Shown here piece by piece: positions 1,633 to 38,355 of a stretch of DNA of 64,000 bases (positions are counted from its first letter, which is position 1; the number at the start of each line of letters is the position of its first letter). The translations under genes and the position numbers were made by a program. The stretch comes from Candidatus Hydrogenedentota bacterium (lineage in GTDB: Bacteria; Hydrogenedentota; Hydrogenedentia; Hydrogenedentales; SLHB01): contig BTWA01000008.1 in the NCBI GenBank assembly GCA_045863295.1, positions 123,774 to 187,773 of the forward strand. The letters are read 5' to 3'. The notes below the pieces were generated by a model. The model saw only the letters and a program-made list of their open reading frames with translations, was not told the origin of the DNA and made no database searches.

Positions 1633-4600
1633 TTACAGGTCCTGCCTTGTTCTCCTCGCGGTTTTGAGGAGGATCGCAATCGAGGCAGCAAGGATCAGCG
1701 TGAAGGTGATCCACGCGCGGGTGGTTCCACTTGCCGCCAACTCCATGGGGCCGATCGCTCCAAGGGAAATCTCCGCGTGCGATGCCAAGGCCAACACGGC
1801 GGAATGGTTCAGTTGGACCATGAAGTATTCGCGGTCCGCTTCTTGAACAATCCGCGTTGAGTCGTCTGCAAGGAGTCCGGCTACGTGCTCCACCGGGAAC
1901 CAGCCTTGGTGTCTTCCGGATTCGCTGTAGTACAGGACAACAAGCGAATTCGCGTCGACGCCTTCGGGCACGGGCAGGTAGACGGTCACGGGCTCGGCAA
2001 ACACACCGGAGGGACCCACGCGGAAGACCTCGCCCGCGATGGAACTCATGGACGGATCCATCGCTGGTGCGTCGGTCATGGCCACCATGGTCGGCGCGTC
2101 TTCGCCAGGACCGGCTCCTCCGGAGACTACGAATTCGTAGGACACCGGTGCGAGAGCGTTGCCGTCGGTCAGCGCGGCAGTGGCCGTTGCCGTGATGCGT
2201 TCGCCCATAGCGTAAGGCGATTCGGGCGTGAAGACGATCCACCCGTCGCTTTCGGTGATGGGCAGCCATGAGCCGCCTTCGGCTCGGTAGCCGAGGTCGC
2301 CTTCCATCGTCATTGAAACCGTTGCCGGATCGATGGCTGCGTCGGCGGTGATGCGAACTGCGATCGGTTGCGTGCTGTGAATGGTTGCGTCCACCTTGGC
2401 TTCCACATCCAGCGGCAGCACCTCTTCCCGCACCTCAAGTGCGATGCGCTCGATCGCGGACTTGCGGCCGGTGGATGGCGGCGGAGCGGGTATGGCGGTA
2501 TACGTCCCTTCAAAGACCAGCGATCCGCCCTGGGTCAGTTCTTTCGGGCCGTCGGGCTGATTCCATGGACTTATCCATCCGCCCACAGTGCCCCAAGTCA
2601 CCGTATACGTGCCCGGCTGCATCCCTGTCAGGTCATTGCTGCCTTGATGGACCTGAGGACCGAATGCGGCGCCGGTCTTCAGCGTGCCGTTGATTGTCCA
2701 GTTTGCACTGACTCCGTTCACACGCACCGCGATCGTGCCGGGCGGCGGGGCTGTGTAATTGCCCACGAATGTGATGGTCTGGTTGGCGGCCAGCGTCTTT
2801 TGTTCGCCTGGCGGCGTGATCAGGCCGGGCAACGGATTCCATGTTACGAAGTAGACGCCTGCGATGGAATCCAGCTGGGTCTTGTTACCGACGCCCGCCA
2901 ATGGCGATGGGCCGGTGATGGACCACGAGGCGGTGGCCGTGTTCGTCTGCACGGCTACGGTGCCTTTCAACAATGTGGTGTTGGGCATCAGAAAGAACGT
3001 GGGAAGCAGCAGCACCTGGCCCGCGGAAAGGGTGGCGATGGAGGATACGCTGAAGTATCCCGTCTTGCTTCCGGTGATGGTGTACACCTCGCCCGAAGGC
3101 ACATCGCTGAACAAGTAGTAGCCGTCGTTTCCGGTCGTGAACGGCGGCTTCGCGCCGGGCCCCGTCATGGTCACGGTGGCCCCACCCAGTGGCTGACCTG
3201 TGCTGCCATCGGTTACGACGCCATAAATGGTGCCGGCTGAACCGGGGTTACCGTTGTTCACGGAAAACGTCCGTGTTGTTGCGCTCGGCGTTTCCGCGCC
3301 TGAACTGTCCACCGCCACGACGCGCCAGGTGTAGGTCATCAAATCCTGCAGGCCACTTGCCTGCACGAAGGTTTGGTGAATGTTTTCGATGAGCACTGGG
3401 TCGCCGGTCGTGGGCGTCAATTCGACGCGGTAACTCACGGTATCGCCTGCATCGGGATCCACCGGATTGGCTGGAATCCACGCCAATACGGGCGAAGTCG
3501 ACGTCACCGCGTTGTTGCCGGGATACAGCAGCGTGGGTGCGTTGGGCGGCTGGTTGCCGGGTTTGGGCACGTAGATGTTGGTGATCAAATAGGACGCGAC
3601 TTGGCCTGTTACACCGTCTTTCAGGAAGTAGTAGACCTTGTACGTGCCCGGCGTCGACGCCATGGGAACCTGCGCATTGATGGCGCTCACCACCGTGGAC
3701 TGGTCCCACTCGAACTGCATCTTGTCGCCGGAAAGTGGCGTCTGCGTCGTGGGAGCAAGGGGACCGACCATCTGCGCTTCGCGCTGGAAATCGGTCAGGC
3801 CATCGGCGTTCTCCGGCGCATAGGCGGGAGTCTTGATCTCGATCCACGCCTTGTCGCTCGCGCCGAACGCGCGGCCGAGGGCGGCCGTTTCGGCGAAGAG
3901 GAACGCGGACGATGCTTTCGAGGGCGTGAACTGGAAGGATTGTTGCGCGTTGAACCAACTGATGCCGCCCACGGCGTTGGATTGCAGGCCGAGGATGCTT
4001 GTGGCAGCGAACAGGCCTGCATCGTCGAGGAGCGGATTCTGATCGCCGAGCGCGCTGGCGCTCTCGATGGAGGTGTATTCGATGGTGCGGTCCGAGGCGC
4101 GGTTGAAGGCCGTGAAGAACGTCAGGCCGTCGGTCAAATTGCGGAACAATTCGGAGACAAAATATTCGCCGTCGCGAATGTCGATGCCGTCGTCGGGCGT
4201 TGGATCAACGCCGCGATAGGATTTCTCCGTGGATCGTGCGCTGGTGATGACAAGTCGATTCGCTTTGCTGAGCTTGGACACGAAGCTGCCGGAGTGGCAC
4301 GCGCCGTAGATCACGAAGGTCTGCGGCGGGTTGCCCGGGAAGTAGCCGTCGAACTCATTCAATACATCGCGGAGTTGCGTGGCGCTCATCTCTTCCTGAG
4401 GTCCTGTACCGGGCACATCGAGGTGGACCTTGTCCACGCTGCCGTGACTCACGAGGATCAGGTACAGCGGCGCGCGGCTGGTTTGCACTTTGTCTTTCGC
4501 CCACTGGGTGATGGCGCTGCTTAAGGCGGTGGGAGAAGGTTGTATTTGGACGTTGTTGATGTCCCGCGCGACCTGAATGTCCGAGGGAATGGTGAGGCCG

Positions 4601-7600
4601 GTCTGGCGCAGGTAGTAAATGTCGCTCTGCGCGAATTCGCGGGCAACAAGTGCGCGGTACACGCCATCGGCAGTCACGGCGTGTTCGGGAACGCCTTCGC
4701 CGTCCGCGTTCAGACGGCCATGGACGACGATGGCGTAGCCCGCGCCCGCTTTGATTTCCAGGGTTGCGTCCGTGTCGTCGAAATCCGCTGTCGCGGCGGT
4801 CTTGAAGTTGGCGTCGCCTCGGAATTCGGCCTTGAACCGCCACACGCCTTCCTCGTCGAACAGGATGTTGCCGGCGTCGAACACGGCCTTGGTGAAGACG
4901 GCCGCGCCGCTGGCATTGGTGTTCACCATGACTTCGCCCTTGGGCTCGTTGCCGAGCGCGACGGACACGTACACCGGCTGATTTGCCAAGAGCGTTTGCA
5001 ACGCGCCGGGGAACCCCGGCACGGACATCGTTACATTCACTTCAAAGTCCGGCGCGTTGGCGAAATTGAGCAATGCCGAAGAGCGGCTCGGCGCGATGGT
5101 GAGCGTGGGTTGGGCCTTCTCCACCGCAAAGGTCATTGAATTGCTCGTCGCCGCGCTGTAGGTGGCGTCACCAGGCCAAGCGGCCGTCACGGACCACAGG
5201 CTTGTGTCCGGTGTAGCGGCATTTGGCAAGAACGAAGCGCGGTAGAATGTGCCGTCGAGCGTGCCGAACGGCACGTTCTGCGGAGAGCCGGAAGGGGGCG
5301 TTACCGCGAAGGACAAACCCGCGCTGCCGGGACTCGCCGGCGCAGGCGTAATCTGCGCGGACAAAGTCACCGGATTCCCCAACACCACCGGCTGCGGCAA
5401 CGCTCCGAAGTTGATGACATCGGATGGCAACACGCCGCCCGCCACCACGTCCACTGTGGCCGTCTGCGCGGAAGGGCCCTCGACTTCCGTGTCCTTGGGT
5501 GTGACGATGCAATACCATTGATCGCCCGGCGCGATCTGCTCCTTGGGGACCGTGCTCGTGAGGGCCGATGTGAACGTGGACCCGGCGCCAGGCGATGTAA
5601 GCGCCAACACGCCGTTCTTATACCACTCGTAGCGATACACCAACGACTCCACTTGCTCATCCACATCCGGGTCGGCGGACGGCGTCGTGATTTGGCACAC
5701 CATGCTGCTGTTCGCGCTCTGCCGATTGTTGAAGGAGGATGTGATCGATGCGGCAGGCGCGCCGGGGGGCGTGTTCAGGATCGCCACGCTGCCTGCAGCC
5801 TGTGTCGAAGAGTGCGAATACGACACCCCGTCGAAACCGCGCACCGTGCAGGTCCACGTTTCGCCTTTAACGGTCTCCAATGCAAGCAGGGCATCGGCCG
5901 TGCTTGCAGTGATGTGAATAATCTCGCGGCCTGTGTTGCTCTTCCATTTGAACTCATGTTGGTTGGCTCTTGGCGGCACAGACGGAGAAGCGGAAGGTAC
6001 AAAGACCTCGCAAGCCACAGAATCGGTCGTGCGAAAAGGTCCGGATGCAAAGACCGCATACTCAGCATTCGTTGGCGGTAGGTAACCGGACGTGCGGAAG
6101 TCCGACGGGCCGACCGTTGCCCAGTGCGGGTAGTACCAGCGTGAGTGGGCCGGGTGCGGCGGCAGCGCGTGGCCTGGCTTGATCGATAACACGCCACCGT
6201 TGTTCTGGAACTTGCTCAACGGGGCATGGAGCACGCGCACGCGCCACCTGAAACCATTGGCTTCTTCTTGTACGGTGAACGGCTCGTCATAGGGGTGGCC
6301 TGCAAAGCCGGGGAGTATCCACGTGTCTGTGGTGAAAGTGTCTGTACCTTCGAAAGGTGCGCCATACGGGATAACCTCCCATTCCAGCCGCACCGCGCTC
6401 CGCAATTCCGGCGAATCATGGGCGAGGATTTGAATGCGAAGGTCCGGCGATCGTGTCAGGATACCGGGCGTGGCCAGAAGTGTGTTAGCGTTATCACGAA
6501 GCTGGGCATTGACCAGCTTGCCTTCTGAAGTACCCAGGAAAACGAAAGCCGCGCCTTCGTCAAACTGGCCGTTTGTGTATCCCGATGCGCCGACAATCAC
6601 ATCGGCGTACCCGTCCCCGTTCAAATCCCCCGCACCAGAGACGGACCGGCCCATCCAGGCATCGGCCTGATTGGACTCCAGCACGGACGCCGCGCTCGAG
6701 GGATCGCTACCCAGAAGACCCGAGGCGGAACCGTGGAAAACGAAAGCCGCGCCCTCGTCTGTCTGGCCGTTGTCGTAGTACAGTGCCCCCACAATCACAT
6801 CCGCGTACCCGTCCCCGTTCACATCGCCCGCACCCGAGACCGAATAGCCCATATAGGAGGTTGCCTGATTTGATTCCAGCAAGGACGCTGCGCTCAAAGC
6901 ATCGCTACCCACAAGGCCTGAAGCGGAACCGTGGAAAACGAACGCCGCGCCCTCGTCGACCTGACCGATATTATAGTCAGTCGCCCCCACAATCACATCC
7001 GCGTACCCATCCCCGTTCACATCACCCGCACCCGAGACCGAACTGCCCATATATGAATTCATCTGATTGGATTCCAGCACGGATGCAGCGAACGAAGTAT
7101 CCCAGCCCACAATGCCCCAAGCAGACCCATGGAAAACAAACGCTGCGCCTTCACTAGTCTGTCCATTGTCGTAGTACGGTGCGCCAACTATTATATCCGC
7201 GTATCCATCGCCGTTTACATCTCCCGCGCCATCCACCGAAAGCCCGAACAAACCCCCGCCTTGCAAATACCATGCTACGCCGCCCACACCACCTTCGTCG
7301 TTCACAATACCCGAAGCAGAACCGAGGTAAACAACAACCAATCCTTCATAAAAAATCTCACCAAAGAAGAAGTAGTAGCCAGGTGCCCCCACAATCACGT
7401 CCGCATATCCGTCCCCGTTCACATCGCCCGCATCCGAGGCTGAATAGCCCATGCCGGCTCCTTCAAAATTGGATTCCAGCACGGATGCCGCGCTCGAAGG
7501 ATCTCTACCCACGATGCCTAAAGCCGAACCGTGAAAAACGAACGCCGCTCCTTCATTGGTATGGCCATTGTCGTAGCTCGGCGCGCCCACAATCACATCG

Positions 7601-10182
7601 GCGTACCCGTCACCGTTCACATCCCCCGCACCCGTGACCGAAGCGCCCATGAAGGCGTCGTCCTGATTGGATTCTAGCAAGGACGCCGCGCTGGCAGGAT
7701 CGCTACCCACAAGGCCCGAGGCCGAACCCAGGAACAGAAACGCCGCGCCTTCGTTGTCATGGCCATTGTCGTACTCAGGTGCTCCGACGATGATGTCCGC
7801 GTACCCATCCCCGTTCACGTCCCCCGCACCCGAGATGGAATAGCCCATACGGGCATACTCCTGATTGGATTCCAGCACGGACGCCGCGCTGGCAGGATCG
7901 CTACCCACAAGGCCCGAGGCGGAACCGTGAAAAACGAACGCCCCTCCTTCATCGTTCCGGCCATTGAAGTAGTACGGCGCGCCCACAATTACATCCGCGT
8001 ACCCGTCCCCGTTTACATCCCCCGCCCCCGAGACGGAAAAGCCCATCCGGGCACCCTCCTGAGTGGATTCCAAAACGAATGCCGCGCTCAAAGGATCGCT
8101 GCCCACAAGGCCCGAAGCAGAACCGTGGAAAACGAACGCTACGCCTCCATCATTCTGGCCATTGACGAAGATGTTCTGGCCATTGTTGTAAAGCGGCGCA
8201 CCTGCGATCACATCCGCGTACCCATCCCCGTTCACATCCCCCGCACAAGATACCGAATAGCCCATGGCGGCCTCGTTCTGTCTGGATTCCAGCACGGACG
8301 CCGCGCTAGAGGGATCGCTGCCCACAAGGCCCGAAGCAGAACCGTGGAAAACAAAAACCGCTCCTCCATCAATTATCTGGCCGTTATAGTCCTGACCTTT
8401 GTCGTACAGTGGCGCGCCCACGATCACATCCGCGTACCTGTCCCCGTTTACGTCCCCCGCACCCATGACGGAGCCGCCCAGTAAGGCTCCTTCCTGATTG
8501 GATTCCAGCACGGATGCCGCGCTCGAAGGATCGCTGCCTACTAGGCCGGAGGACGAACCGTGGAAAACAAATGCCGCGCCTTCGTCAAACTGGCCGTTTG
8601 TGTATCCCGATGCGCCGACAATCACATCGGCGTACCCGTCCCCGTTCAAATCCCCCGCAGAAGAGACGGAAATGCCCATGAAGGCATCTTCCATATTGGA
8701 TTCCAGCGCAGTTGCCGCGTTCGATGGATTGCTGCCCACAAGGCCCGAAGCAGAACCGTGGAAAACAAACGCCGCGCCTTCATCGACCTGTCCGTTGTTA
8801 TAATACAGCGAACCCACAATCACATCCGCGTAGCCGTCCCCGTTCACGTCCTCCGCACCCGAGACTGACTGGCCCATAAAAGCGTTGACCTGATTGGATT
8901 CCAGCACGGATGCCGCGCTCGAAGGATCGCTGCCTACTAGGCCGGAGGACGAACCGTGGAAAACAAATGCTGCGCCTTCGTCGTCTTGGCCGTTGTCGTA
9001 GTGCCACGCACCCACAATCACATCCGCGTAGCCGTCCCCGTTCACGTCCCCCGCCCCCGAGACTGACTGGCCCATAAAAGCGTTGACCTGATTGGATTCC
9101 AGCACGGATGCCGCACTCGAAGGATCGCTGCCTACCAGGCCCGAAATGGAACCATGAAAAACGAAAGCCGCACCTTCCCCATACTGGCCATTGTCGTATT
9201 GGGGGGCGCCTACAATCGCATCCGCGTACCCATCCCCGTTCACATCCCCCGCACCCGTGACCGAAGCGCCCATGAAGGCGTCGTCCCAATTACCCTCCGC
9301 CTGCCAGTCGCCGATTGGAGGTGGGACGTAGATGGGGTCCACTTCTATGGGATAGACGGCATCCGCATCGTGGATAGTGAACCGGGTTTCGCCATCGAGT
9401 TGGCGCAACGTGGCCGGGATTGATTTGCCGGTGGCGTCGAAGACCTCGAGTTTGGCGTATTGGAGGAGGACGTTGTTGTCCTCGTCGCGGAACGCAATGC
9501 CATTGCCGCTGTTTGCGGCCTGGGCCGATCCGCCAAATGCGCCCGCAATGACCAGCGCTCCGTCGCCCGCAGGGCGTTCTGCGATGGTGAAGCCATGCTC
9601 CAATCCGCGCTCGTCGTTGACGTACCATTCCTCAATACCGGGATGTTTATACGCGAGGCGGTTGGTGTGCGAATCGGATTCCGGCTTGACCTTTGATACC
9701 TCCCGCATGGCGCCTTCGCGGCCCCAGGCTTTGAATTGCCAGCGGATGTCCCAGTCGGGATCGCTCGTCTCCCGTTCGACAATCTGGACGCCGTCTTCGC
9801 GGAAGTAGGCCCGCAAATTCGCGGCGCGATTTGTCGCATGCAGCCCGCCGGGTTCGCCTTCGATGACGGAATTATCCTGCCAGGTGATGTTGTATTCGGC
9901 TTTACGGATACCTTCCTGGACCTGGCTCATCCACGCGGGGTCTTGTGAGGTTTCGGATGAAGGACCGGATGGGGCGGGACTGGGAACGTCGGGCCTTATG
10001 TTTGCGGGAATGGCGGCGGAGGCCGGTTCATGAGATGCCGTGCTGGTTGATGCCAGGGGTATGGGCGTGCTGGGCGATGCGTGCTTTTGCTGGTTGCGAT
10101 TGGCTTCCCAGAGAAATATCGGGCTACTCGCAGCCAGCGCAACCAGGACAATGCCCCACCGAAACAATCGCTCATTCCACAT
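1633..10182 (-). CDS. Giant membrane-anchored surface protein: N-terminal domain, 14 FG-GAP (integrin-alpha-like) repeats, Ig-like domains, clan-CD (C13/caspase-like) peptidase, FN3-like, carboxypeptidase-regulatory-like, 2 PEGA-like repeats, C-terminal anchor module + TM
   Basis: 2857-aa ORF (ATG 10182 after GAGGGG preferred over TTG 10206); 14x (G/E)D(V/L)NGD.YAD..(V/A)G; LVSHG...IYGACHSGSF dyad; hydrophobic C-terminus followed by KTARRTR. Confidence 0.9.
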   Translation of the reverse strand: MWNERLFRWGIVLVALAASSPIFLWEANRNQQKHASPSTPIPLASTSTASHEPASAAIPANIRPDVPSPAPSGPSSETSQDPAWMSQVQEGIRKAEYNITWQDNSVIEGEPGGLHATNRAANLRAYFREDGVQIVERETSDPDWDIRWQFKAWGREGAMREVSKVKPESDSHTNRLAYKHPGIEEWYVNDERGLEHGFTIAERPAGDGALVIAGAFGGSAQAANSGNGIAFRDEDNNVLLQYAKLEVFDATGKSIPATLRQLDGETRFTIHDADAVYPIEVDPIYVPPPIGDWQAEGNWDDAFMGASVTGAGDVNGDGYADAIVGAPQYDNGQYGEGAAFVFHGSISGLVGSDPSSAASVLESNQVNAFMGQSVSGAGDVNGDGYADVIVGAWHYDNGQDDEGAAFVFHGSSSGLVGSDPSSAASVLESNQVNAFMGQSVSGAEDVNGDGYADVIVGSLYYNNGQVDEGAAFVFHGSASGLVGSNPSNAATALESNMEDAFMGISVSSAGDLNGDGYADVIVGASGYTNGQFDEGAAFVFHGSSSGLVGSDPSSAASVLESNQEGALLGGSVMGAGDVNGDRYADVIVGAPLYDKGQDYNGQIIDGGAVFVFHGSASGLVGSDPSSAASVLESRQNEAAMGYSVSCAGDVNGDGYADVIAGAPLYNNGQNIFVNGQNDGGVAFVFHGSASGLVGSDPLSAAFVLESTQEGARMGFSVSGAGDVNGDGYADVIVGAPYYFNGRNDEGGAFVFHGSASGLVGSDPASAASVLESNQEYARMGYSISGAGDVNGDGYADIIVGAPEYDNGHDNEGAAFLFLGSASGLVGSDPASAASLLESNQDDAFMGASVTGAGDVNGDGYADVIVGAPSYDNGHTNEGAAFVFHGSALGIVGRDPSSAASVLESNFEGAGMGYSASDAGDVNGDGYADVIVGAPGYYFFFGEIFYEGLVVVYLGSASGIVNDEGGVGGVAWYLQGGGLFGLSVDGAGDVNGDGYADIIVGAPYYDNGQTSEGAAFVFHGSAWGIVGWDTSFAASVLESNQMNSYMGSSVSGAGDVNGDGYADVIVGATDYNIGQVDEGAAFVFHGSASGLVGSDALSAASLLESNQATSYMGYSVSGAGDVNGDGYADVIVGALYYDNGQTDEGAAFVFHGSASGLLGSDPSSAASVLESNQADAWMGRSVSGAGDLNGDGYADVIVGASGYTNGQFDEGAAFVFLGTSEGKLVNAQLRDNANTLLATPGILTRSPDLRIQILAHDSPELRSAVRLEWEVIPYGAPFEGTDTFTTDTWILPGFAGHPYDEPFTVQEEANGFRWRVRVLHAPLSKFQNNGGVLSIKPGHALPPHPAHSRWYYPHWATVGPSDFRTSGYLPPTNAEYAVFASGPFRTTDSVACEVFVPSASPSVPPRANQHEFKWKSNTGREIIHITASTADALLALETVKGETWTCTVRGFDGVSYSHSSTQAAGSVAILNTPPGAPAASITSSFNNRQSANSSMVCQITTPSADPDVDEQVESLVYRYEWYKNGVLALTSPGAGSTFTSALTSTVPKEQIAPGDQWYCIVTPKDTEVEGPSAQTATVDVVAGGVLPSDVINFGALPQPVVLGNPVTLSAQITPAPASPGSAGLSFAVTPPSGSPQNVPFGTLDGTFYRASFLPNAATPDTSLWSVTAAWPGDATYSAATSNSMTFAVEKAQPTLTIAPSRSSALLNFANAPDFEVNVTMSVPGFPGALQTLLANQPVYVSVALGNEPKGEVMVNTNASGAAVFTKAVFDAGNILFDEEGVWRFKAEFRGDANFKTAATADFDDTDATLEIKAGAGYAIVVHGRLNADGEGVPEHAVTADGVYRALVAREFAQSDIYYLRQTGLTIPSDIQVARDINNVQIQPSPTALSSAITQWAKDKVQTSRAPLYLILVSHGSVDKVHLDVPGTGPQEEMSATQLRDVLNEFDGYFPGNPPQTFVIYGACHSGSFVSKLSKANRLVITSARSTEKSYRGVDPTPDDGIDIRDGEYFVSELFRNLTDGLTFFTAFNRASDRTIEYTSIESASALGDQNPLLDDAGLFAATSILGLQSNAVGGISWFNAQQSFQFTPSKASSAFLFAETAALGRAFGASDKAWIEIKTPAYAPENADGLTDFQREAQMVGPLAPTTQTPLSGDKMQFEWDQSTVVSAINAQVPMASTPGTYKVYYFLKDGVTGQVASYLITNIYVPKPGNQPPNAPTLLYPGNNAVTSTSPVLAWIPANPVDPDAGDTVSYRVELTPTTGDPVLIENIHQTFVQASGLQDLMTYTWRVVAVDSSGAETPSATTRTFSVNNGNPGSAGTIYGVVTDGSTGQPLGGATVTMTGPGAKPPFTTGNDGYYLFSDVPSGEVYTITGSKTGYFSVSSIATLSAGQVLLLPTFFLMPNTTLLKGTVAVQTNTATASWSITGPSPLAGVGNKTQLDSIAGVYFVTWNPLPGLITPPGEQKTLAANQTITFVGNYTAPPPGTIAVRVNGVSANWTINGTLKTGAAFGPQVHQGSNDLTGMQPGTYTVTWGTVGGWISPWNQPDGPKELTQGGSLVFEGTYTAIPAPPPSTGRKSAIERIALEVREEVLPLDVEAKVDATIHSTQPIAVRITADAAIDPATVSMTMEGDLGYRAEGGSWLPITESDGWIVFTPESPYAMGERITATATAALTDGNALAPVSYEFVVSGGAGPGEDAPTMVAMTDAPAMDPSMSSIAGEVFRVGPSGVFAEPVTVYLPVPEGVDANSLVVLYYSESGRHQGWFPVEHVAGLLADDSTRIVQEADREYFMVQLNHSAVLALASHAEISLGAIGPMELAASGTTRAWITFTLILAASIAILLKTARRTRQDL
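6535..9300 (-). repeat. Intragenic FG-GAP repeat array, about 198-bp period, 14 units
   Basis: For example gactgactggcccataaaagcgttgacctgattggattccagcacggatgccgc occurs at 8863 and 9061; an identical stretch of about 85 bp occurs near 6548 and 8573. Confidence 0.9.
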
Positions 10183-10314
10183 ATGGTGAACCCCTCGTGA
10201 CTTCAACCGCTGAACTGGACATTCAGAACCGCAGCGCAGCCTTCTTTGGCTGGACTTTTAACTCTTTTTGCGAGGTCGAACCTGTTTACTTTGCGCCACG
10301 ACGTGCAGGCTTGG

Positions 10315-13440: not shown

Positions 13441-13461
13441 TGCTTACGGTCTACCGGTTCA

Positions 13462-31465: not shown

Positions 31466-31713
31466 GCAGAATTCCCGCACCGATACGCGCCGTCGGGCCG
31501 GATACTGGGATTGCGAAGTAACCTCTGCCTGTACAGAATCAAGGCCCGTGGGATGTTGGGCTGAGCCTGTTTGGATTCTTCCACGGTCACCGACGGGTAT
31601 GGCTGCCAAGCTGCCGTCAAAACGAATCCTCCCTATCACTTCTCAGCACGAATTAGGTCCACTTGAGATGGACGCCGTCTGGCGCACGACGGAAACCAAT
31701 AGGCACAAGAAAG

Positions 31714-31729
31714 GGCAAATCCCGTGCCA
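31714..31729 (-). promoter_or_regulatory. sigma54 promoter of the kinase-WD40 gene
   Basis: Minus strand TGGCACG-GGAT-TTGCC. Confidence 0.85.
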
Positions 31730-31823
31730 ATTCGGCCGATTGAGTCGTCACACTGTAAGTGCTTTTCAGTACAGAGCTTATCGCTTATAATGCCTATTGG
31801 CCTAAATGCATTTATAGTAGTGC

Positions 31824-31862
31824 TGTTCACTTTCTGAACACTTCATGTCCAATAAATGGACG
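31824..31862. promoter_or_regulatory. Tandem UAS palindromes
   Basis: TGTTCACTTTCTGAACA (31824) and TGTCCAATAAATGGACG (31846): 22 bp apart, the first 95 bp from the -24 element. Confidence 0.75.
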
Positions 31863-32039: not shown

Positions 32040-34229
32040 ATGGTGGTCAAAACTGGTGTAGACGGGCGAATCGGAAAGTACCGTATCGTTCGCGAACTGG
32101 GCCACGGCGGCATGGGGGTCGTTTACCTGTCGCAAGACGAGGATCTGGGCCGGCCTGTCGCGATCAAAGTGCTGCACTCGTCGATGAGCCTTGATCCGGA
32201 CTTTCGCGGCCGCTTCCGTCAAGAGGCGCGGACGATCGCTTCTCTTGTCCATCCGCATATCGTACGTATTCATTCCTTTCTAGAAATCGACGATGTAATG
32301 GTAATCGAGAGCGAGTTCGTCGAGGGGGGGTCGTTAGCGGACGTAATGACGCAACGTGGCGTCACACCACATCAAGTGGCGCGGTTTGGCGTTGAGATGC
32401 TGGAAGCGTTGATATGTTGTCATGACTTGGGAATCGTTCATCGAGATGTGAAGCCGACTAATATATTGCTCGATAGGTACGGCAGGGCCTTGCTTGCGGA
32501 TTTCGGCCTTGCAAAGATCTATTTCGATCACTTGGCGCAAGCCAACAAGAGTTCAAGCACGAGTCGACTTTTTCTTGGAACACCCCGTTATGCGGCTCCC
32601 GAAGCCTGGGACGGTACGGAACCTTCTCCGTTGTGGGATTTGTATTCCCTGGGCATGGTTATGTACGAGGCAATCTCGGGACACTGTCCTTACGATGCTT
32701 CATCGCCGTTCGCCTTATTGAAGCAAATCATGGAGCGCAAGCCGGACCCGCTGCGGGAGGTGGCGCCACACGTATCGGTCGAACTGGGCGACTTGGTCGA
32801 TTCCATGGTATCGCGAGATCCGGCAAACAGGCCACAAACCGCTAGAGCGGCGCTTGAGACTTTGCGAAACACTCAAGAATATGGATCCGCACCCACGTCA
32901 AGTTCACCGACGATTGTCCAGCCGAGGCCGCTCCGGCCGAGCACCATCGTGACGGCCGCGCACCGCGTGAGCGCAGCCTGGAAGCGGAATGCAACAGTGA
33001 TTAGTGTGCTGTTGTTCGCTGCGCTTTGCCTGGCTGTTTCCATTCAGTTACGGTTGAAACCAGGAATGGATATGGGAGCCGACAAGCTGCCGCCTCCCGA
33101 CTATCAGATCGATCTCGTACGAACAGGCATTCCAGAAGAAGAAAGCATTAACGCGTTTGCGCTTGGGCCGGCCTCTCAGTGGTTGGTCTTGGATTCGCTC
33201 GACCACGAGACATTGGCCGCGCGATCCGGAAATTGGCTATTTAAGTTCGAGCCAGGGGGCAAACTTACCGCGGTTGTAATGGCAGACGAAGAATCGCTGT
33301 GCCGCCTTGAGGCATCTGAAGATACCGATCAAGCCGTCAAATTAGACGGCTTCTGGGCCGATTATCAGGGTCTTGCGGGGGCCGTGTACCGGCATGGGAC
33401 GGCTTCCGGTACCGGCCGCTGGAACGGGGATAGAACGTCATTCACCGCTCGGCTGGAATTCACCAACGAGCAAGATAACTCGAGGTGGGAAGAAGTATTG
33501 ACCGGAACTGTCTCGCCAACTTGGACTGATACGGCGTTTCTGCTCCGCATGGAGGAACAACCCAATACCCACGCCTTGATCTACAATGAACTTGTGCCAA
33601 GGGGCAAGGAGTGGGCCGAACATCTGGAGCAATTGTTGCCCGCGATGTCCGGTATGCGCACTCAGGTTGCGATCTCGGCGGCAAACAGGCCTGACTTTCA
33701 TCCAAACGGCATGTTGGACGAAGTGTATTGGAATATGGAATCTCGAGCCCGCGACGGAGGAGTGCTTGCCGGTTATCCAATGAATGGCGCGTCGCACTTG
33801 ATATTGCGATTTGGCAATGACGGTGTCTATATTGCCGCCTATTGCCGCACAGGCGAAGGCGTGAAGTCTGAGTTTGAATGCCAGTTGACTGCGCGATATC
33901 GAGTATTCATGGATCGCCAGCCGCGCGTGACGTTATTTCACAACTCCGACGGCGAGTCCCTGGTGGAACTGATGCCCGAGGGAGGACCTGTGGGAGACTC
34001 AGAATCCTGGGCACTTGGCGATGCCTATCATGACGGAGTCTGGACGGTCGAAGGATTCGTCGCCTACTCTATACTTGGGCTGACCGGGCCGCCCGAATCC
34101 GGCCATCGTATTCGGACGAATGCCGTTATTCGCGCAGGCAAGGCATCGGACATTAAGGTGCCTGTGGCGCTTTGGGGTTACCCCGCGGTCGACCGCATAG
34201 AGCATGGCGCTATTATCGTCGTCCAATAA
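32040..34229 (+). CDS. Membrane Ser/Thr protein kinase (PknB-like kinase, TM, extracytoplasmic sensor region)
   Basis: LGHGGMGVVY, VAIK, HRDVKPTN, DFGLAK, GTPRYAAPE, DLYSLG; TM VISVLLFAALCLAVSI. Confidence 0.92.
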   Translation: MVVKTGVDGRIGKYRIVRELGHGGMGVVYLSQDEDLGRPVAIKVLHSSMSLDPDFRGRFRQEARTIASLVHPHIVRIHSFLEIDDVMVIESEFVEGGSLADVMTQRGVTPHQVARFGVEMLEALICCHDLGIVHRDVKPTNILLDRYGRALLADFGLAKIYFDHLAQANKSSSTSRLFLGTPRYAAPEAWDGTEPSPLWDLYSLGMVMYEAISGHCPYDASSPFALLKQIMERKPDPLREVAPHVSVELGDLVDSMVSRDPANRPQTARAALETLRNTQEYGSAPTSSSPTIVQPRPLRPSTIVTAAHRVSAAWKRNATVISVLLFAALCLAVSIQLRLKPGMDMGADKLPPPDYQIDLVRTGIPEEESINAFALGPASQWLVLDSLDHETLAARSGNWLFKFEPGGKLTAVVMADEESLCRLEASEDTDQAVKLDGFWADYQGLAGAVYRHGTASGTGRWNGDRTSFTARLEFTNEQDNSRWEEVLTGTVSPTWTDTAFLLRMEEQPNTHALIYNELVPRGKEWAEHLEQLLPAMSGMRTQVAISAANRPDFHPNGMLDEVYWNMESRARDGGVLAGYPMNGASHLILRFGNDGVYIAAYCRTGEGVKSEFECQLTARYRVFMDRQPRVTLFHNSDGESLVELMPEGGPVGDSESWALGDAYHDGVWTVEGFVAYSILGLTGPPESGHRIRTNAVIRAGKASDIKVPVALWGYPAVDRIEHGAIIVVQ

Positions 34230-34243
34230 GGACAACGGGGAGA

Positions 34244-36070
34244 GTGGCGTTGTACCAACTCACCGCACTAGCGGGCTTGACAAAAGGTGCGTCGTGGCAA
34301 ATCACGGCCAAGCCCCTCGTCATTGGCAGAGACAACACGTGTGACATTTCGCTAGCGGATCCTTTGGTATCACGCCGGCATTGCGAACTCTCACTGGTCG
34401 GCGATTCGCCTTTCCTGCGGGATCTCAATAGCAGCAATACAACGCTGGTCAATGGTACGCCGACCAAAAGCGGCCTGCTTACTCTTGGCGATCAAATATG
34501 CATAGGCAAAGTCGTCTTTCTTGTAACGCAGCCGAACACTGTCCATTCGGCTGTTCCTGGACAGTTGGTCGAAGAGCAGACACAGACGCTTTCAGAGGCG
34601 GACGTTGTTTACTTTGGAGATTCTAGCCGTCTTCGCCAGGTGCAAGGACCGCATACCATTGAGGATATGGTACTGCTGATCCGGCTTAACCGGACATTTA
34701 GTGAATGCGACTCCGTTCCCTGCCTGATCCGGATGTTGGATCAATCGCTGAGAGAGCGTTTTTCCCCGCAACTATGCTGGATCATGACGCAAGAGGGCAG
34801 TTCTGGCGTGCGCACGCTTCATCCGACGCACACGTATTCGAATCAAAGTGAGAGTATTCCTGAGCATTTGATTGAACTTGTAATGCAGAGCCGTCAGGGA
34901 TTGTTGGCTCCAAAGCGAATTCATCGCAAAAACGCAGTCGCATATCAGTTTTTCCTCGCCTCCCCCATCATCTGGCAGGATCAGATCACCGGCATAATCG
35001 TATTGATGTCGGATTCCCTTCATCGCATATATGACGAATCGGATTTGGAATTTCTCGTTGGCGTTACTCGAAGCATCGCCCCGGTCTTTCGTGCGCTCGA
35101 AAAGCGGGAAGAGTTGATGCGTGAAAACGAACGGCTTCAGGTGTCGCTTCATCATTCACTGGCGATCATTGGCAAGAGCAGCGCGCTCACCTCTGTTCGC
35201 ACGCTGGCTTCGAAAGTCGCGCCTACGAACCAACCTGTTCTCATCGTTGGCGAGACCGGCACGGGCAAAGAACTGCTTGCACACATGATCCACAACTTGT
35301 CGCCCCGGTATGATCGGGCGTTTGCCGTCGTGAATTGCGCAGCCATTCCGCGCGATTTGTTTGAAAGCCAATTCTTTGGACACGAGAAGGGATCGTTCAC
35401 TGGTGCCGGGGCGCGCCACATAGGACTACTGGAGGAAAGCGATCAAGGCACCCTGTTTCTGGACGAAGTGGGCGACTTAAGTCTCGACAATCAGGCGAGA
35501 ATCCTTCGCGCAGTGGAGACCGGGGTCTTTCGGCGGGTCGGCGGGAAGGAAGATATCCAATGCGACTTCCGGTTGATATCCGCGACCAACAAGAATCTTG
35601 ACGAAGCGACAAGAACTGGGTCGTTTCGCCCTGACTTGTACCATCGGTTGCGCGGCATCGAAATCAAGATACCGCCGTTGCGGGAACGCGCAGGGGATGT
35701 GCCGTTGCTTGTAGAACATTTTCTTGAGGAAGCGCGTGCGCGATTTTGCGGTGGGATCCAAGGCTTCTCCCGCGAATCAATGGAGAACCTGTGCAGCCGC
35801 GAGTGGCGTGGCAACGTGCGCGAACTTAAACAGACCGTCTTTTCGGCTGCCATTCTGGCCGATGGCCCGTTGATTGAAGTCGAACACCTGAATGTTTCCG
35901 ACAAGTGGACGGCCGACGACACGGTCCCATTAACCTTGGACGAAGCGGAAAAGCTGCACATTTCGCGCGTACTGGAAGTATGCAAGGGAAACGTCGTCGA
36001 GGCGGCCAATCTTTTGAAAGTGAGCCGGACAACCCTTTACTCGAAGATGGACAAATATGGGTTGCGTTAA
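34244..36070 (+). CDS. sigma54-dependent activator (bEBP) with FHA, GAF, AAA+ and Fis-type HTH domains
   Basis: FHA IGRD..DPLVSRRH..DLNSSNTT.VNG; GETGTGKEL, NCAA, FGHEKGSFTGA, GTLFLDEV, FRPDLYHRL, WRGNVREL; HTH AANLLKVSRTTLYSKM. Confidence 0.93.
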   Translation: MALYQLTALAGLTKGASWQITAKPLVIGRDNTCDISLADPLVSRRHCELSLVGDSPFLRDLNSSNTTLVNGTPTKSGLLTLGDQICIGKVVFLVTQPNTVHSAVPGQLVEEQTQTLSEADVVYFGDSSRLRQVQGPHTIEDMVLLIRLNRTFSECDSVPCLIRMLDQSLRERFSPQLCWIMTQEGSSGVRTLHPTHTYSNQSESIPEHLIELVMQSRQGLLAPKRIHRKNAVAYQFFLASPIIWQDQITGIIVLMSDSLHRIYDESDLEFLVGVTRSIAPVFRALEKREELMRENERLQVSLHHSLAIIGKSSALTSVRTLASKVAPTNQPVLIVGETGTGKELLAHMIHNLSPRYDRAFAVVNCAAIPRDLFESQFFGHEKGSFTGAGARHIGLLEESDQGTLFLDEVGDLSLDNQARILRAVETGVFRRVGGKEDIQCDFRLISATNKNLDEATRTGSFRPDLYHRLRGIEIKIPPLRERAGDVPLLVEHFLEEARARFCGGIQGFSRESMENLCSREWRGNVRELKQTVFSAAILADGPLIEVEHLNVSDKWTADDTVPLTLDEAEKLHISRVLEVCKGNVVEAANLLKVSRTTLYSKMDKYGLR

Positions 36071-36174: not shown

Positions 36175-38355
36175 ATGCTCTTTCTGGAATGGCGTTCGGT
36201 CTACTCCGTTTCTGGTGCAATCCTTTTTCTGGGTTCCGCGCTCTGTTTCCAGCCCACAATAGCCCTTGCGCAAACGATACCGCCTGAATGGCAGAATCTT
36301 CATTCCGAGCCCATGGGCCTGAAGCATTGCGGTGACTTTGTCTACTTCAGCGCGGACGACGGAGTCCACGGCCGTGAACCATGGCGCACCGATGGGACGC
36401 CGGAGGGAACGGTGATGATCGCCGATCTGCAATTGGGAAGTGAGGGTTCCAACCCCGAGAATTTCGTCGAAGCTGGCCGTTGGACGGTTTTTCTGGCCAC
36501 CCGCGATTCGGCCCCCCTACTCTGGGTAACAGACGGGACGCCTGGAAACATATACACTGTGGAAGGCGAACCAGGCAGGGCAATTTGGTGTGAGCATGTG
36601 ATTGGCGCTCCATTTGGAGTCCTGGGCCATGAAGTGTACTTTCCCTCCCGAAATAACTCTGTTCAGATGTCAATGTGGATATTCGATTTGAATTCCAGGT
36701 CTCTTCGCAGATTTGAGAAGCCTTCCTTTCTACCAACCCAACTCGACTATCCAAAATACTTTGAATCGGCCGAAGATCGTATCTATTACGTATGGGGCCG
36801 CAATGACTACCACGAAGGCCAACTCTTCACGCTGAATTCCGGTGGTGACCAAGTTTTGCTGACGTCGTCACTCGGGCCTAACGTTCGGTGCGTGTTGACG
36901 TGCGTGGGAGATCGTCTCTATTTCGCGGCAAGCACCCCTGAAACTGGCATCGAAGTCTGGACTTGCGACGGAACGCCTTCGTCGACCCGTATCCTTCAGG
37001 ATATTAATCCCGGACCCGGCGAAGCGCTTAGCGTCGTTCACCCCTACGGCGCAGCCTTGGGAGATTTACTTGTATTCAGAGCGAACGACGGCATTCATGG
37101 AGACGAAATATGGGTGACCAACGGCACAAGCTCGGGGACGTTTATGCTTCGCGATGTGAACCCAGGATCTGGGTCTTCCAATTGCGGCATGCTGACGACC
37201 GTTGGAAGACTCTGTTATTTTCAGGCCAACGATGGCATTTCGGGCGCGGAGTTATGGACGACCGACGGTACGCCGGAGGGTACGCGGCTGGTGAAAGATG
37301 TTTTCCCTGGGCCGCGCGGCAGCAATCCGTTCGGGTTGCTGGGTATTGGCGACAAACTATACTTTTCCGCGGAGGATCATCTTCGAGGAGGCGAGCTGTG
37401 GCAAAGCGACGGTACCGCTGACGGAACCATGCCGGTGATCGATCTGGCGCCTGGAATTCAAGGAGGCTGGGCCAAACACAAGGCAGTGCTCAACGGCAAG
37501 ATCCTTTTTGGGGCGGGCAATCCTTCTTATGGAGTCGAACTATGGTCCAGCGATGGCACAAGCCAGGGAACAACGATACTGAAGGACATTTGGCCCGTTC
37601 GCGGCCCAAACCCATCTTCCAACCCAGACAAACTTATATCAGTCGGGAATCGGCTCTTCTTTGTCGTTAACGATGCAACTCATGGTGCGGAACTTTGGCA
37701 GAGCGATGGAACCCACGAAGGCACGGGGCTGGTAAAGGACATCTTTCCTGGAGCTACAAGTTCCAGCCCGTCGCACTTCTGCGCATTTGAAGGACTACTC
37801 TACTTCCAAGCGGATGACGGTTCCCATGGAAGCGAATTGTGGTGCAGCGATGGCACCGACAAGGGCACACGTCTGTGCGTGGACTTACGTGAAGGCAGGG
37901 ATTCCGCCAATCCGCATTCCATTACCTCCGTTGGCGAACGACTTGCCTTTGTGGCGAATGATGGAGTCAGCGGATATGAGTTGTATCGATATCCCCCGGT
38001 AAACCTGTTCGATCGGCTACTGGTCAAGGACATTCGCGCCGGTAACGACGGATCCAACCCGAAGAATCTCACGGTTCATCAGGGTAAGCTGTATTTTGTC
38101 GCGGATGACGGTATTCATGGTCAGGAACTTTGGGTCAGCAATCTTGAACCGAGCGGAACCCATATCGTGCGAGACTTACTCCCACGGCCAAAAATGCAGA
38201 GCCAAGCGCAAGCGAGTACCATTCACTTAGACTCAGGATCCGCGGTTTTGAATAATTCTTTGTTTCTACTGGGAGACCAAGACGGTGCCCTGCCCGTGAT
38301 CCTATCCCTCAAATCAAATGTCATGGAGACGTATACGGTCGGCGAAAATGAGTAA
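36175..38355 (+). CDS. ELWxxDGT-repeat (beta-propeller) exported protein
   Basis: Signal peptide; about 10 repeats of F.A.DG.HG.ELW.SDGT..GT..V.DI.PG..SS.P. Confidence 0.9.
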   Translation: MLFLEWRSVYSVSGAILFLGSALCFQPTIALAQTIPPEWQNLHSEPMGLKHCGDFVYFSADDGVHGREPWRTDGTPEGTVMIADLQLGSEGSNPENFVEAGRWTVFLATRDSAPLLWVTDGTPGNIYTVEGEPGRAIWCEHVIGAPFGVLGHEVYFPSRNNSVQMSMWIFDLNSRSLRRFEKPSFLPTQLDYPKYFESAEDRIYYVWGRNDYHEGQLFTLNSGGDQVLLTSSLGPNVRCVLTCVGDRLYFAASTPETGIEVWTCDGTPSSTRILQDINPGPGEALSVVHPYGAALGDLLVFRANDGIHGDEIWVTNGTSSGTFMLRDVNPGSGSSNCGMLTTVGRLCYFQANDGISGAELWTTDGTPEGTRLVKDVFPGPRGSNPFGLLGIGDKLYFSAEDHLRGGELWQSDGTADGTMPVIDLAPGIQGGWAKHKAVLNGKILFGAGNPSYGVELWSSDGTSQGTTILKDIWPVRGPNPSSNPDKLISVGNRLFFVVNDATHGAELWQSDGTHEGTGLVKDIFPGATSSSPSHFCAFEGLLYFQADDGSHGSELWCSDGTDKGTRLCVDLREGRDSANPHSITSVGERLAFVANDGVSGYELYRYPPVNLFDRLLVKDIRAGNDGSNPKNLTVHQGKLYFVADDGIHGQELWVSNLEPSGTHIVRDLLPRPKMQSQAQASTIHLDSGSAVLNNSLFLLGDQDGALPVILSLKSNVMETYTVGENE

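Follow-up and report, generated by a model that had tools for sequence, protein, structure and literature searches.

A candidate sigma-54 regulon linking a receptor kinase and an FHA-domain activator to giant legumain-like surface proteins in a Candidatus Hydrogenedentota bacterium

Genes and protein features of the locus

The locus occupies positions 1633-38355 of the 64-kb stretch of DNA analyzed here (the window) and contains five genes on the minus strand, g1 to g5, and three divergent genes on the plus strand, g6 to g8. Gene g1 (1633-10206, minus strand) encodes a 2857-aa surface protein with an N-terminal membrane anchor, FG-GAP propellers (14 matched stretches), fn3 and CarboxypepD_reg domains, and a Peptidase_C13 match of 26 bits (cut-off 22.8). 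The legumain-like C13 domain (aa 1914-1999, nt 4210-4467) carries the motifs LILVSHGS and VIYGACHSGSF, and the protein ends in a domain shared with g4, a TM helix and a basic tail. The g4 product (15213-27038, minus strand; 3941 aa) is likewise a surface protein. It has a signal peptide, about nine PPC-like repeats, an NHL propeller and the C-terminal anchor in common with g1, with profile matches to PPC, NHL and Peptidase_C13 (39 bits). Judged by its motifs, YLVDHGAP and VYDACESGSF, one C13 domain of g4 (aa 1832-1902, nt 21333-21545) looks active; a second C13-like domain (aa ~2178-2340) is degenerate, its His and Cys replaced. The legumain His/Cys dyad is thus kept in both giants, and about 17 such legumain-like giant surface proteins are encoded in the genome.

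Between the giants lie g3 (13462-15099, minus strand), an Alginate_exp-type outer-membrane β-barrel with six more tblastn matches in the rest of the genome (44-53% identity), and g2 (10859-13054, minus strand), a secreted 731-aa protein that matched no family in the profile search. Strand and spacing make g2 the likely last gene of a g4-g3-g2 transcription unit. Gene g5 (27635-31639, minus strand) encodes a 1334-aa cytoplasmic kinase with Pkinase and WD40 matches. A Cys4, zinc-ribbon-like N-terminus precedes a non-RD Hanks kinase domain (HADVKPGN, DFG), a TPR-like middle region and two WD40 propellers.

On the plus strand, g6 (32040-34229; 729 aa) is a receptor Hanks kinase (Pkinase) with intact VAIK, HRDVKPTN, DFG and APE motifs, a single TM helix and an ectodomain of 390 aa. 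The C-terminal half of the ectodomain is predicted to form a β-sandwich (model pLDDT 77.9, pTM 0.76) for which the best solved-structure matches are CBM9 modules (1i82_A, E 8e-7, target TM 0.67), and it accordingly models as a CBM9-like sugar-binding fold. The g7 product (34172-36070) is an enhancer-binding protein (bEBP) composed of FHA, GAF, Sigma54_activat (AAA+) and HTH_8 domains. Its FHA domain has the expected residues (GR...SRRH...N), the recognition helix reads SRTTLYSK, and the sigma-54 contact loop is GSFTGA instead of GAFTGA. Gene g8 (36175-38355) encodes a secreted ELWxxDGT repeat protein (TIGR04534, 553 bits against a cut-off of 65, nine matched stretches) and is likely the sensor partner of g6. 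These profile matches agree with the preliminary description, which had recognized two giants and a kinase-TPR-WD40 gene on the minus strand, and a divergent cluster of membrane kinase, FHA-GAF-AAA-Fis activator and ELWxxDGT propeller.

Promoters and candidate upstream activating sequences

Scans for the sigma-54 promoter motif TGGCAC-N5-TTGC and the palindrome TGTTCA-N5-TGAACA (family form TGTYCA-N5-TGRACA) bear out the proposal that g1, g4 and g5 each have a sigma-54-type promoter with a palindrome upstream, the distances being 96-126 bp. P1, ahead of g1 (10316-10330, minus strand; TGGCGC-GCCGA-TTGC, one mismatch), is preceded by an exact TGTTCA-N5-TGAACA palindrome at 10417-10433, a candidate upstream activating sequence (UAS) centered 96 bp upstream of the -24 GG. 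P4, ahead of g4 (27401-27415, minus strand; TGGCAC-GCCAA-TTGC, exact), has a candidate tandem UAS at 27510-27548 that consists, in minus-strand reading, of AGTCCAGAAACTGAACA (27510-27526, two mismatches, centered 104 bp upstream of the -24 GG) and AGTTCAATAGTTGAACA (27532-27548, one mismatch, 126 bp). The same geometry recurs at P5, ahead of g5 (31715-31729, minus strand; TGGCAC-GGGAT-TTGC, exact). Here the candidate tandem UAS lies in the divergent g5/g6 gap (31824-31862) and pairs the exact palindrome TGTTCAGAAAGTGAACA (31824-31840, 104 bp) with CGTCCATTTATTGGACA (31846-31862, 126 bp), which is of the CGTCCA-N5-TGGACA type.

A sigma-70-like element, TTTTCA-17-TATAAT (31763-31791, plus strand, 10/12), is a candidate promoter of g6-g7-g8. 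Because the UAS sits between this element and g6, autoregulation of g6-g7-g8 is possible. Upstream of g1, g4 and g5, the minus strand yielded no match to a sigma-70-like consensus. The ~350-nt leader that separates P4 from the start codon of g4 (27039-27390, minus strand) is strongly structured (z = -3.4, with equally good folding in 0 of 100 shuffles) and has no match in Rfam.

Co-occurrence of the motifs and further predicted targets

Neither motif is enriched in the window taken alone. The palindrome (≤2 mismatches) has five matches against 2.3 expected, a count reached in 11 of 100 shuffles, and the sigma-54 motif has six against 6.1 expected. At this scale, the -24/-12 matches and palindromes could be chance or relict features, the genes being read from other, sigma-70-type promoters; planctomycete sigma-70 promoters, moreover, may not fit the consensus used in our scan, and of the listed sequencing runs none is recorded as RNA. 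The genome-wide scan proposed in the preliminary description gives a different picture. Only three exact palindromes exist in the 6.3-Mb genome, and of the 16 with at most one mismatch, five are followed, 40-250 bp downstream, by a sigma-54 motif in the correct orientation; 119 palindromes with permuted half-sites have a mean of 0.20 and a maximum of two so placed. The pairing is far beyond chance genome-wide. Furthermore, the distance from the -24 GG to the proximal palindrome is 96-116 bp across promoters, and tandem sites 22 bp apart occur at four of them, with proximal offsets of 104-116 bp: P4, P5 and two promoters on other contigs, C18 (107 and 129 bp) and C7 (116 and 138 bp). Every site is intergenic and oriented toward a gene. 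Given this regularity, we regard chance or relict matches as very improbable.

With a relaxed palindrome, a site lies upstream of 11 of 424 sigma-54 motifs, and the control downstream windows hold six palindromes; of all these sites, we find just the tandem and the exact ones convincing. On C18 the sites lie in front of a kinase-TPR gene; on C7, in front of a small stand-alone Fis-like ORF. Two more genes are probable outputs, one for a kinase-WD40 protein (C5) and one for a C35 surface protein that shares its N-terminal domain with g4 and its C-terminal domain with g1. Three of the 29 Pkinase matches in the genome and three members of one surface-protein family stand behind such sites. Among 31 ORFs that share the terminal (mostly C-terminal) domains of the giants, site and promoter occur together only at g1, g4 and C35. 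We note one exact sigma-54 motif accompanied by a relaxed palindrome with one mismatch at C14:58816.

Homologous loci and the identity of the activator

The genome encodes rpoN and about 25 bEBPs (Sigma54_activat genes), and the palindrome might be read by one of these other than g7, in a regulon that is real but next to which g6-g7-g8 lie by coincidence in a kinase-rich genome. Candidates are the genome's second FHA activator, on contig C3, a full-length g7 paralogue with 41% identity, and the roughly 23 others. The recognition helix of the C3 paralogue differs from that of g7, however (RAT), and neither a palindrome site nor a sigma-54 promoter was found at its locus. In addition, one tandem UAS of the regulon falls inside the g5/g6 divergent gap, only 180-220 bp from g6.

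Comparison with other genomes also bears on this question. A search of all 54 genomes of the family returned no relative of g7 above 45% identity, the best being 45%. In a quick and poorly resolved tree of the 40 FHA activators, g7 has no close orthologue as its neighbor, which speaks for another reader of the sites. On the other hand, homologous activators in three other genera have a palindrome of the same type directly beside their own gene. At locus L045 (genome G013), two TGTTC-type palindromes and a sigma-54 promoter begin 20 bp past the stop codon of the homologous module activator, and L038 and L031 are arranged similarly. Paralogues with other recognition helices (L027, L040, L042) have GTCCA-N5-TGGAC sites in the same position. 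Where a GTYC-N7-GRAC site lies no more than 400 bp from the gene (six loci), the helix RTT (g7, L045, L031) goes with TGTTC sites and RST (3/3) with GTCC sites. The correlation is not strict: promoters of the present genome mix TGTTCA and TGTCCA half-sites, as a different reader might also allow, and L051, with the RTT helix, has no site nearby. In four relatives, 15 of 25 palindromes (≤1 mismatch) were inspected and a sigma-54 motif was seen at only two, both at L045. Taken together, we consider a reader other than g7 unlikely.

The identity of the input is a separate matter. A kinase-domain match is present in the fetched stretch (up to ~9 kb on each side) at 19 of the 40 FHA-activator loci, and two more have only the kinase ectodomain part, at the stretch edge. 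Activator, g6-type kinase and ELWxxDGT protein occur together at 13 loci. Homologues of the C13 regions, g2, g3 and the g5 N-terminus were found within ~9 kb at none of the 40. Synteny, a check proposed in the preliminary description, was thus seen for the signaling module and not seen for its targets in the distant relatives compared (45% identity to g7 at best). Since 27 of the loci lack the module, g7 might drive the promoters but take its main input from something other than g6. Its FHA domain would then respond to a different kinase among the 29 (g5, for instance, as feed-forward), or the input would be a small ligand sensed by the GAF domain that separates FHA from AAA+, with g6 and g8 a separate signaling pair sharing the operon. 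Such a pair exists on C14, where no FHA activator was matched alongside, and the regulon itself encodes three kinases. Against this stand the 13 loci, in which the three genes stay together despite shuffled order and four of which have a kinase ORF that itself runs into ELWxxDGT repeats, and the overlapping reading frames of g6 and g7 (34172-34229), an arrangement suggestive of translational coupling. We find a different input a shade less plausible even than a different reader of the palindrome.

Proposed mechanism

On balance, and with moderate confidence, we favor a model in which P1, P4 and P5 are switched on together by g7, itself controlled by g6; both the kinase-to-FHA control and the binding of the palindrome by g7 are what we infer from sequence. 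An outside cue, probably a glycan, would be read by the g6 ectodomain together with secreted g8, and g6 would autophosphorylate on threonine. Docking of the g7 FHA domain on the phosphothreonine would relieve inhibition of the AAA+ ring, and g7 would assemble on the tandem sites ~104 and 126 bp upstream to open the sigma-54 promoters. The predicted outputs are g1, g4-g3-g2 and g5 in the window, and the C18 kinase-TPR gene and the small C7 Fis-like ORF elsewhere. If the model is correct, the cell deploys two giant legumain-like surface proteases along with a second tier of cytoplasmic kinases. The interpretation first put forward for this DNA is thus supported in part: it retains its architecture, now with a fixed promoter geometry, an rpoN gene and a recurring module; co-conservation of the targets was not seen at the 40 loci, and its novelty was overstated as regards the regulatory logic.

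Comparison with known systems

FHA-domain sigma-54 activators were reportedly described in Pirellula sp. strain 1 by Studholme and Dixon in 2004 (FEMS Microbiol Lett 230:215) and in Myxococcus xanthus by Jelsbak, Givskov and Kaiser in 2005 (PNAS 102:3010). To our knowledge, signaling from a kinase to such an activator has long been proposed and barely tested. In these proteins, as in g7, FHA stands at the N-terminus of an AAA+ sigma-54 activator, where a receiver domain would otherwise be, and a Hanks-type kinase is the proposed input. The present system differs in its readable candidate motif, its defined promoter set, a dedicated receptor kinase, itself paired with an ELWxxDGT protein, and a GAF domain between FHA and AAA+. 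It is predicted to act on genes for giant legumain-like surface proteins and additional kinases rather than on developmental genes.

The UASs of NtrC/NifA-type activators are dyad-symmetric, lie ~100-150 bp upstream of a GG-N10-GC promoter and often form same-face tandem pairs. The candidate sites resemble them in symmetry, distance and tandem arrangement, but have a TGTYCA half-site with a 5-bp spacer, and the putative activator is not a response regulator. The threonine-phosphorylation pathway of the Pseudomonas aeruginosa H1-T6SS (PpkA/Fha1/TagR) likewise combines a membrane Hanks kinase and its periplasmic partner with an FHA protein as reader of the phosphothreonine. What that pathway controls is the assembly of a secretion machine, at the post-translational level; in the present system the FHA domain belongs to a transcription activator, and an ELWxxDGT repeat protein is the likely partner. 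In Mycobacterium tuberculosis, PknH-EmbR also couples a receptor Ser/Thr kinase to control of an FHA-bearing transcription factor, but EmbR is a SARP/OmpR-type sigma-70 activator without AAA+ domain, sigma-54 or distant UAS. EmbR is listed among kinase substrates in a table of PMC6213207.

As for the outputs, the hydrophobic strand-His-Gly and Ala-Cys-x-Ser-Gly motifs align with the catalytic dyad found in the legumains of plants and mammals (asparaginyl endopeptidase, C13, clan CD). Here, in contrast, the predicted C13 domain is embedded in membrane-anchored proteins of 2857 and 3941 aa with propellers and Ig-like domains, and in g4 it is followed by the degenerate copy. The remark in the preliminary description that no described pathway with this combination was recognized is too strong for the regulatory logic, given the FHA activators of 2004-2005; the new part is the outputs and the ELWxxDGT partner.

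Organization of the locus

Eight genes, g1 to g8, lie between window positions 1633 and 38355. Five are on the minus strand: g1 (2857 aa, with FG-GAP x14, Peptidase_C13, fn3 and CarboxypepD_reg), g2 (731 aa, without a family match), g3 (545 aa, an Alginate_exp porin), g4 (3941 aa, with PPC, NHL and Peptidase_C13) and g5 (1334 aa, with Pkinase and WD40). The plus strand carries the receptor kinase gene g6 (729 aa, Pkinase), the activator gene g7 (632 aa, with FHA, GAF, Sigma54_activat, AAA_lid and HTH_8) and g8 (726 aa), which encodes a secreted ELWxxDGT repeat protein. For g2, the ESM Atlas yields scores below 0.8 and TM values below 0.4, with a weak hint of a propeller, and neither g2 nor the small ORFs described below have a Pfam match over cut-off at E up to 1.

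The surroundings comprise an integrase N-terminal SAM-like fragment (603-1085, +), a CheX-like protein just 3' of g8 (38758-39465, +), an AcrB/HlyD/OEP efflux operon (39871-46310, -), a ThuA-HEAT-F5/8C protein (46877-50092, -) and a PMT-type glycosyltransferase with four sugar-nucleotide epimerase/dehydratase genes (53875-60125). No PP2C phosphatase was found within the window, and Rfam returned no match over its whole length. The source assembly (G000) comprises 6.3 Mb in 88 contigs and is 96% complete; DNA of this stretch is found in bioreactor and sludge metagenomes. The DUF1559/SBP_bac_10 family, a marker of planctomycetes, has 25 matches in G000 versus none in 14 control genomes, which makes a planctomycete source probable.

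Sigma-54-type promoters with a common upstream palindrome

Sigma-54-type promoters were identified by a pattern scan and by reading upstream regions for GG and GC elements 10 nt apart (TGGCAC-N5-TTGC). Those preceding g1, g4 and g5 (P1, P4 and P5) are all intergenic, and each points toward its gene. P4 (TGGCACGCCAATTGC, 27401-27415, -) and P5 (TGGCACGGGATTTGC, 31715-31729, -) are exact, and P1 (TGGCGCGCCGATTGC, 10316-10330, -) has one mismatch. All three have the palindrome TGTYCA-N5-TGRACA upstream. P1 has a single dyad, TGTTCA-N5-TGAACA, at 10417-10433 (96 bp from the promoter). P4 has two, at 27510-27526 and 27532-27548, and so does P5, with TGTTCAGAAAGTGAACA at 31824-31840 and CGTCCATTTATTGGACA at 31846-31862; in both cases the distances are 104 and 126 bp. 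A single rpoN is present in the genome: a 485-aa open frame on contig C34 matches Sigma54_DBD with E = 2e-63.

Neither element is enriched within the window alone, where 11 of 100 shuffles reach the palindrome count and 54 of 100 reach the sigma-54 motif count. Across the whole of G000 there are three exact palindromes, two of them within the window, and 16 with no more than one mismatch. Five of these 16 have a correctly oriented sigma-54 motif (one mismatch allowed) 40-250 bp downstream, whereas the other 119 half-site permutations average 0.20 and never exceed 2. The preliminary description had claimed that three genes combine a sigma-54 promoter with a common palindrome and had proposed a genome-wide scan for the pair; the claim is borne out, and the scan recovers the three window promoters plus two further sites at no more than one mismatch. 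The site at C18:44531 precedes an 875-aa kinase-TPR gene, with dyads at 107 and 129 bp. The site at C7:7567, with dyads at 116 and 138 bp, lies before a 73-aa ORF whose Fis-type HTH is degenerate; sugar-nucleotide genes begin about 750 bp farther downstream. The tandem dyads at P4, P5, C18 and C7 are spaced by exactly 22 bp.

Two more promoters carry sites with two mismatches. One, on C5, precedes a 1442-aa kinase-WD40 gene, and the other, on C35, precedes a 1261-aa secreted protein that joins the N-terminal 'PVND...NAT.E.GEP' domain of g4 to the C-terminal domain of g1. From the motif counts, about three such two-mismatch co-occurrences are expected by chance, and we accept C5 and C35 as regulon members only for the nature of their targets. 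A promoter-side scan of 424 sigma-54 motifs, with the dyad relaxed to GTYCA-N5-TGRAC (no more than one mismatch, 75-150 bp upstream), is weakly enriched overall, with 11 promoters having a site versus 6 dyads in control windows. Its other hits, on C4 (a flagellar rod gene), C19, C22 and C33, are therefore treated as chance; a possible exception is C14:58728, before a third C13 surface protein (2142 aa). Two other candidates were rejected: C12:64296 lies within an ORF, and C1:123230 has a poor motif 240 bp away. These promoters probably form one sigma-54 regulon.

The same upstream regions have two additional features. A sigma-70-like TTTTCA-17-TATAAT element is located at 31763-31791 (+), 5' of the tandem dyads and of g6. 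Because the dyads stand between this element and g6, an activator bound to them would sit downstream of the sigma-70-like promoter, making autoregulation possible. Separately, the g4 leader of about 350 nt (27039-27390, -) folds with an MFE of -135.8 kcal/mol (z = -3.4; 0 of 100 shuffles as stable) and contains a 16-bp perfect hairpin; it has no Rfam match.

The g7 activator and its predicted binding site

The signaling parts of the locus look functional as judged by their motifs. For g7, the AAA+ domain (PF00158, 210 bits) has the Walker A motif GETGTGKE, and its sigma-54 contact loop, GSFTGA, differs from GAFTGA by one conservative change. The FHA domain (PF00498, 64 bits) has the phosphothreonine-binding residues ('IGRD', 'SRRH' and 'NSSNTTLVNG'), and HTH_8 scores 45 bits. 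G000 contains about 25 Sigma54_activat genes, any of which might in principle read the sites, among them a second FHA activator on C3. Four lines, which are suggestive but thin, point to g7 as the putative activator of these promoters: position, relatives, other paralogues and the recognition helix.

As to position, the tandem dyads of P5 lie in the divergent gap between g5 and g6. For the relatives, we collected 40 full-length g7 homologues from 25 genomes, including the C3 copy, with up to about 9 kb of sequence on each side. In locus L045 (genome G013), two TGTTC-type dyads and a sigma-54 promoter start 20 bp past the activator stop codon; L038 has TGTTCA-N5-TTTACA twice plus a promoter, and L031 has TGTTCG-N5-AGAACA. 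Other paralogues show a like layout with different half-sites, namely GTCCA-N5-TGGAC in L027, L040 and L042, and TTCCCA-N3-TGGGAA in L033. When loci with a GTYC-N7-GRAC dyad no more than 400 bp from the gene are compared, the helix 'RTT' (L045, L031 and also g7) pairs with TGTTC, and 'RST' (L027, L040 and L042) pairs with GTCC. This pattern spans six loci, the promoters of G000 itself mix half-sites, and L051 has an 'RTT' helix but no site. From the dyads beside homologous genes and this helix/half-site correlation, we infer that the g7 HTH would bind the upstream dyad. The C3 paralogue has the helix 'RAT', and no dyad or promoter of its own was found on inspection of its locus. In this part of C3 (13019-16177), a 1232-aa kinase gene comes no more than about 60 nt after the second FHA activator.

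The receptor kinase and its probable ELWxxDGT partner

The g6 kinase domain (Pkinase, 161 bits) has all Hanks motifs ('VAIKVL', 'HRDVKPTNILL', 'ADFGLAK' and 'RYAAPE'), and the protein has one TM helix. Its reading frame overlaps that of g7 at 34172-34229. Given the linkage of such genes at this and related loci and established knowledge of FHA domains, the kinase may control g7 through phosphothreonine.

The ectodomain of g6 is a conserved family (alignment A1); Pfam gives no hit to it, even when E values up to 1 are allowed. Its AlphaFold model (pLDDT 77.9, pTM 0.76) has two β-sandwich domains. The best solved Foldseek matches to the C-terminal half are CBM9 domains (1i82_A, E = 8e-7, target TM 0.67, then 7nwn, E = 1e-6, and 7nwo); DOMON-like haem subunits also match the model (2ivf_C and 7b04_C). 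Since there is no Pfam match, we describe the modeled fold of this half as CBM9-like and not as a member of the CBM9 family. The g8 protein has an N-terminal signal peptide and matches TIGR04534 over nine stretches with 553 bits (cut-off 65). To our knowledge, the ELWxxDGT family has no known function.

A kinase-domain match is present in the fetched stretch of 19 of the 40 FHA activator loci, and tblastn finds the ectodomain only, at the stretch edge, in two more. The preliminary description had called for synteny in related genomes. This holds for the module of g6-type kinase, ELWxxDGT protein and FHA activator, which recurs in 13 of the 40 loci with varying gene order (the window's order is kept in L051, L060 and L062), but not for the outputs: within the fetched flanks, none of the 40 has a homologue of g2, of g3, of the C13 regions or of the N-terminal part of g5. 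In four of the 13 (L061, L063, L064 and L065), the kinase ORF runs on into ELWxxDGT repeats, without the g6-type ectodomain. These fusions argue that the repeat protein belongs to the sensor. The predicted complex of the g6 ectodomain with g8 scores 0.00, below the mark, and speaks neither for nor against such a pairing. A search for related loci with the full-length kinase alignment was of no use for synteny, as it returned 79 generic-kinase loci from many phyla through the kinase domain only. A second kinase and ELWxxDGT pair lies at C14:89743-94226, where no FHA activator was matched beside it.

No g7 relative above 45% identity was found in all 54 genomes of the family searched. This search gave seven new loci; of the six scanned, none has the 'RTT' helix, and two have TTCGCA-N3-TGCGAA, a different dyad, along with a sigma-54 promoter. 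The relatives' genomes G005, G010, G011 and G013 contain 25 palindromes with no more than one mismatch; among the 15 inspected, only the two of L045 have a sigma-54 motif. In G005 (L159), a site that is almost identical stands 35 bp away from a start codon and has no promoter. In a quick tree of the 40 FHA activators, with 20 of 37 inner branches open, the module-type activators are not monophyletic and no g7 orthologue was identified.

Giant legumain-like proteins and further kinases

Peptidase_C13 is matched by g4 with 39.2 bits and by g1 with 26.0 bits (gathering cut-off 22.8). The g4 motifs 'DHGAPGK' and 'DACESGS' align with 'NHGAPGK' and 'EACNAGS' of 6idv_A, although this PDB match is weak (E = 0.035). 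With 'SHGS' and 'GACHSGSF' in g1, and 'DHGAPGK' and 'DACESGSF' in g4, both proteins keep the clan-CD His/Cys dyad in legumain register and are predicted proteases. A second C13-like domain of g4 (aa ~2178-2340, window ~20019-20507, -) has the His and Cys replaced ('LIGPGT' and 'CDASGSGS'). Many G000 paralogues likewise have a strong and a weak C13 match in tandem, an arrangement that looks like an active/pseudo-protease pair.

Both giants have a signal or anchor sequence at the start; at the other end they share a domain that is followed by a TM helix and a basic tail. This tail is reminiscent of a sorting signal, but no known CTERM model matched it; for the C-terminal domain, Pfam at E up to 1 gave no match over cut-off. 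The terminal domain set, mostly C-terminal, marks 31 large ORFs in G000, about 17 of them with C13, on contigs C3, C9, C14, C23, C25, C31, C37, C38, C41, C50, C51, C64, C67 and others. Only g1, g4, C35 and possibly C14:58816 have both site and promoter, and the regulon therefore selects a subset of the family.

The g5 product, a cytoplasmic kinase of the non-RD type, combines a Cys4 N-terminus with a TPR-like region and two WD40 propellers. Three of the 29 kinase-domain matches in G000 (g5, C18 and C5) stand behind such sites, so induction would raise a second tier of kinases.

Small ORFs beside FHA activator genes

In several genera, a dyad and sigma-54 promoter drive small ORFs beside FHA activator genes (L029:11236-11702, L034:11179-11379, L049:11113-11580, L036:6072-6564, L045:5026-5510(-), L038:11085-11273 and L040:5168-5398). 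The small ORFs of G000 are at C7:7777-7995 (= L001:478-696) and C59 ~19867-20040(-). Type A, found at six of the listed loci, is a stand-alone Fis/HTH_8-like protein of 63-95 aa; one matches the HTH of g7 (E = 1e-5) and scores 19.5 bits against Pfam HTH_8, under the cut-off. Type B, found at five loci, has 60-100 aa and the motif 'R.(W/L)W(L/M)T(T/W)F..Y.V'. The two types occur together in four. In G000, the A-type ORF lies behind the tandem site on C7, and the B-type ORF on C59 has no obvious sigma-54 promoter. These small proteins may be feedback modulators.

Interpretation and comparison with known systems

The regulon interpretation of the preliminary description survives in part. The promoter set and a neighboring activator with intact motifs are there, but the target genes are not found within about 9 kb of the relatives' activators. 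We give a slight edge to the full mechanism, in which the kinase acts on the FHA activator and the activator on the sigma-54 promoters, with the kinase step as its less certain part. A more detailed joint reading, which we regard as rather doubtful, is an outside-in cascade of a planctomycete type: the CBM9-like glycan sensor of g6, with the secreted ELWxxDGT protein as co-sensor, would activate the FHA-GAF sigma-54 activator, whose outputs would be giant legumain-like surface proteases and second-tier cytoplasmic WD40/TPR kinases, with T or S in the recognition helix pairing with T or C in the half-site. If true, two tiers of kinases would be coupled to sigma-54 in the manner of a eukaryotic cascade, and the DNA code would be readable.

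Genome analysis brought FHA-domain sigma-54 activators to light some twenty years ago. The logic of a Hanks kinase acting on such an activator was reportedly set out from genome analysis by Studholme and Dixon in 2004 for Pirellula sp. strain 1, and is said to have been described in the same way by Jelsbak et al. in 2005 for Myxococcus xanthus. In the literature searched, no FHA sigma-54 activator has its kinase, DNA site and target promoters all named, and 'ELWxxDGT' appears in no paper. A survey of predicted sigma-54 regulons from 2025 (PMC12316311) names Planctomycetia 24 times and 'FHA' not once, and Ser/Thr kinases do not come up in the passages available from it.

At the present locus, all the parts are gathered on some 37 kb: a receptor kinase whose sensor is modeled as a sugar-binding type, a secreted partner, the activator and an inferred 17-bp site, with at least five promoters of identical geometry. 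This makes the Hanks kinase-FHA-sigma-54 idea directly testable by reconstitution; as the source organism is uncultured, the tests must be heterologous. The locus also gives a first entry point into how the giant legumain-like surface proteins are regulated. The suggestion that no described pathway has this combination needs to be narrowed, since the kinase/FHA/sigma-54 scheme had already been proposed; what is new here is the named site, its tandem geometry, the ELWxxDGT plus CBM9-like sensor and the protease-plus-kinase outputs.
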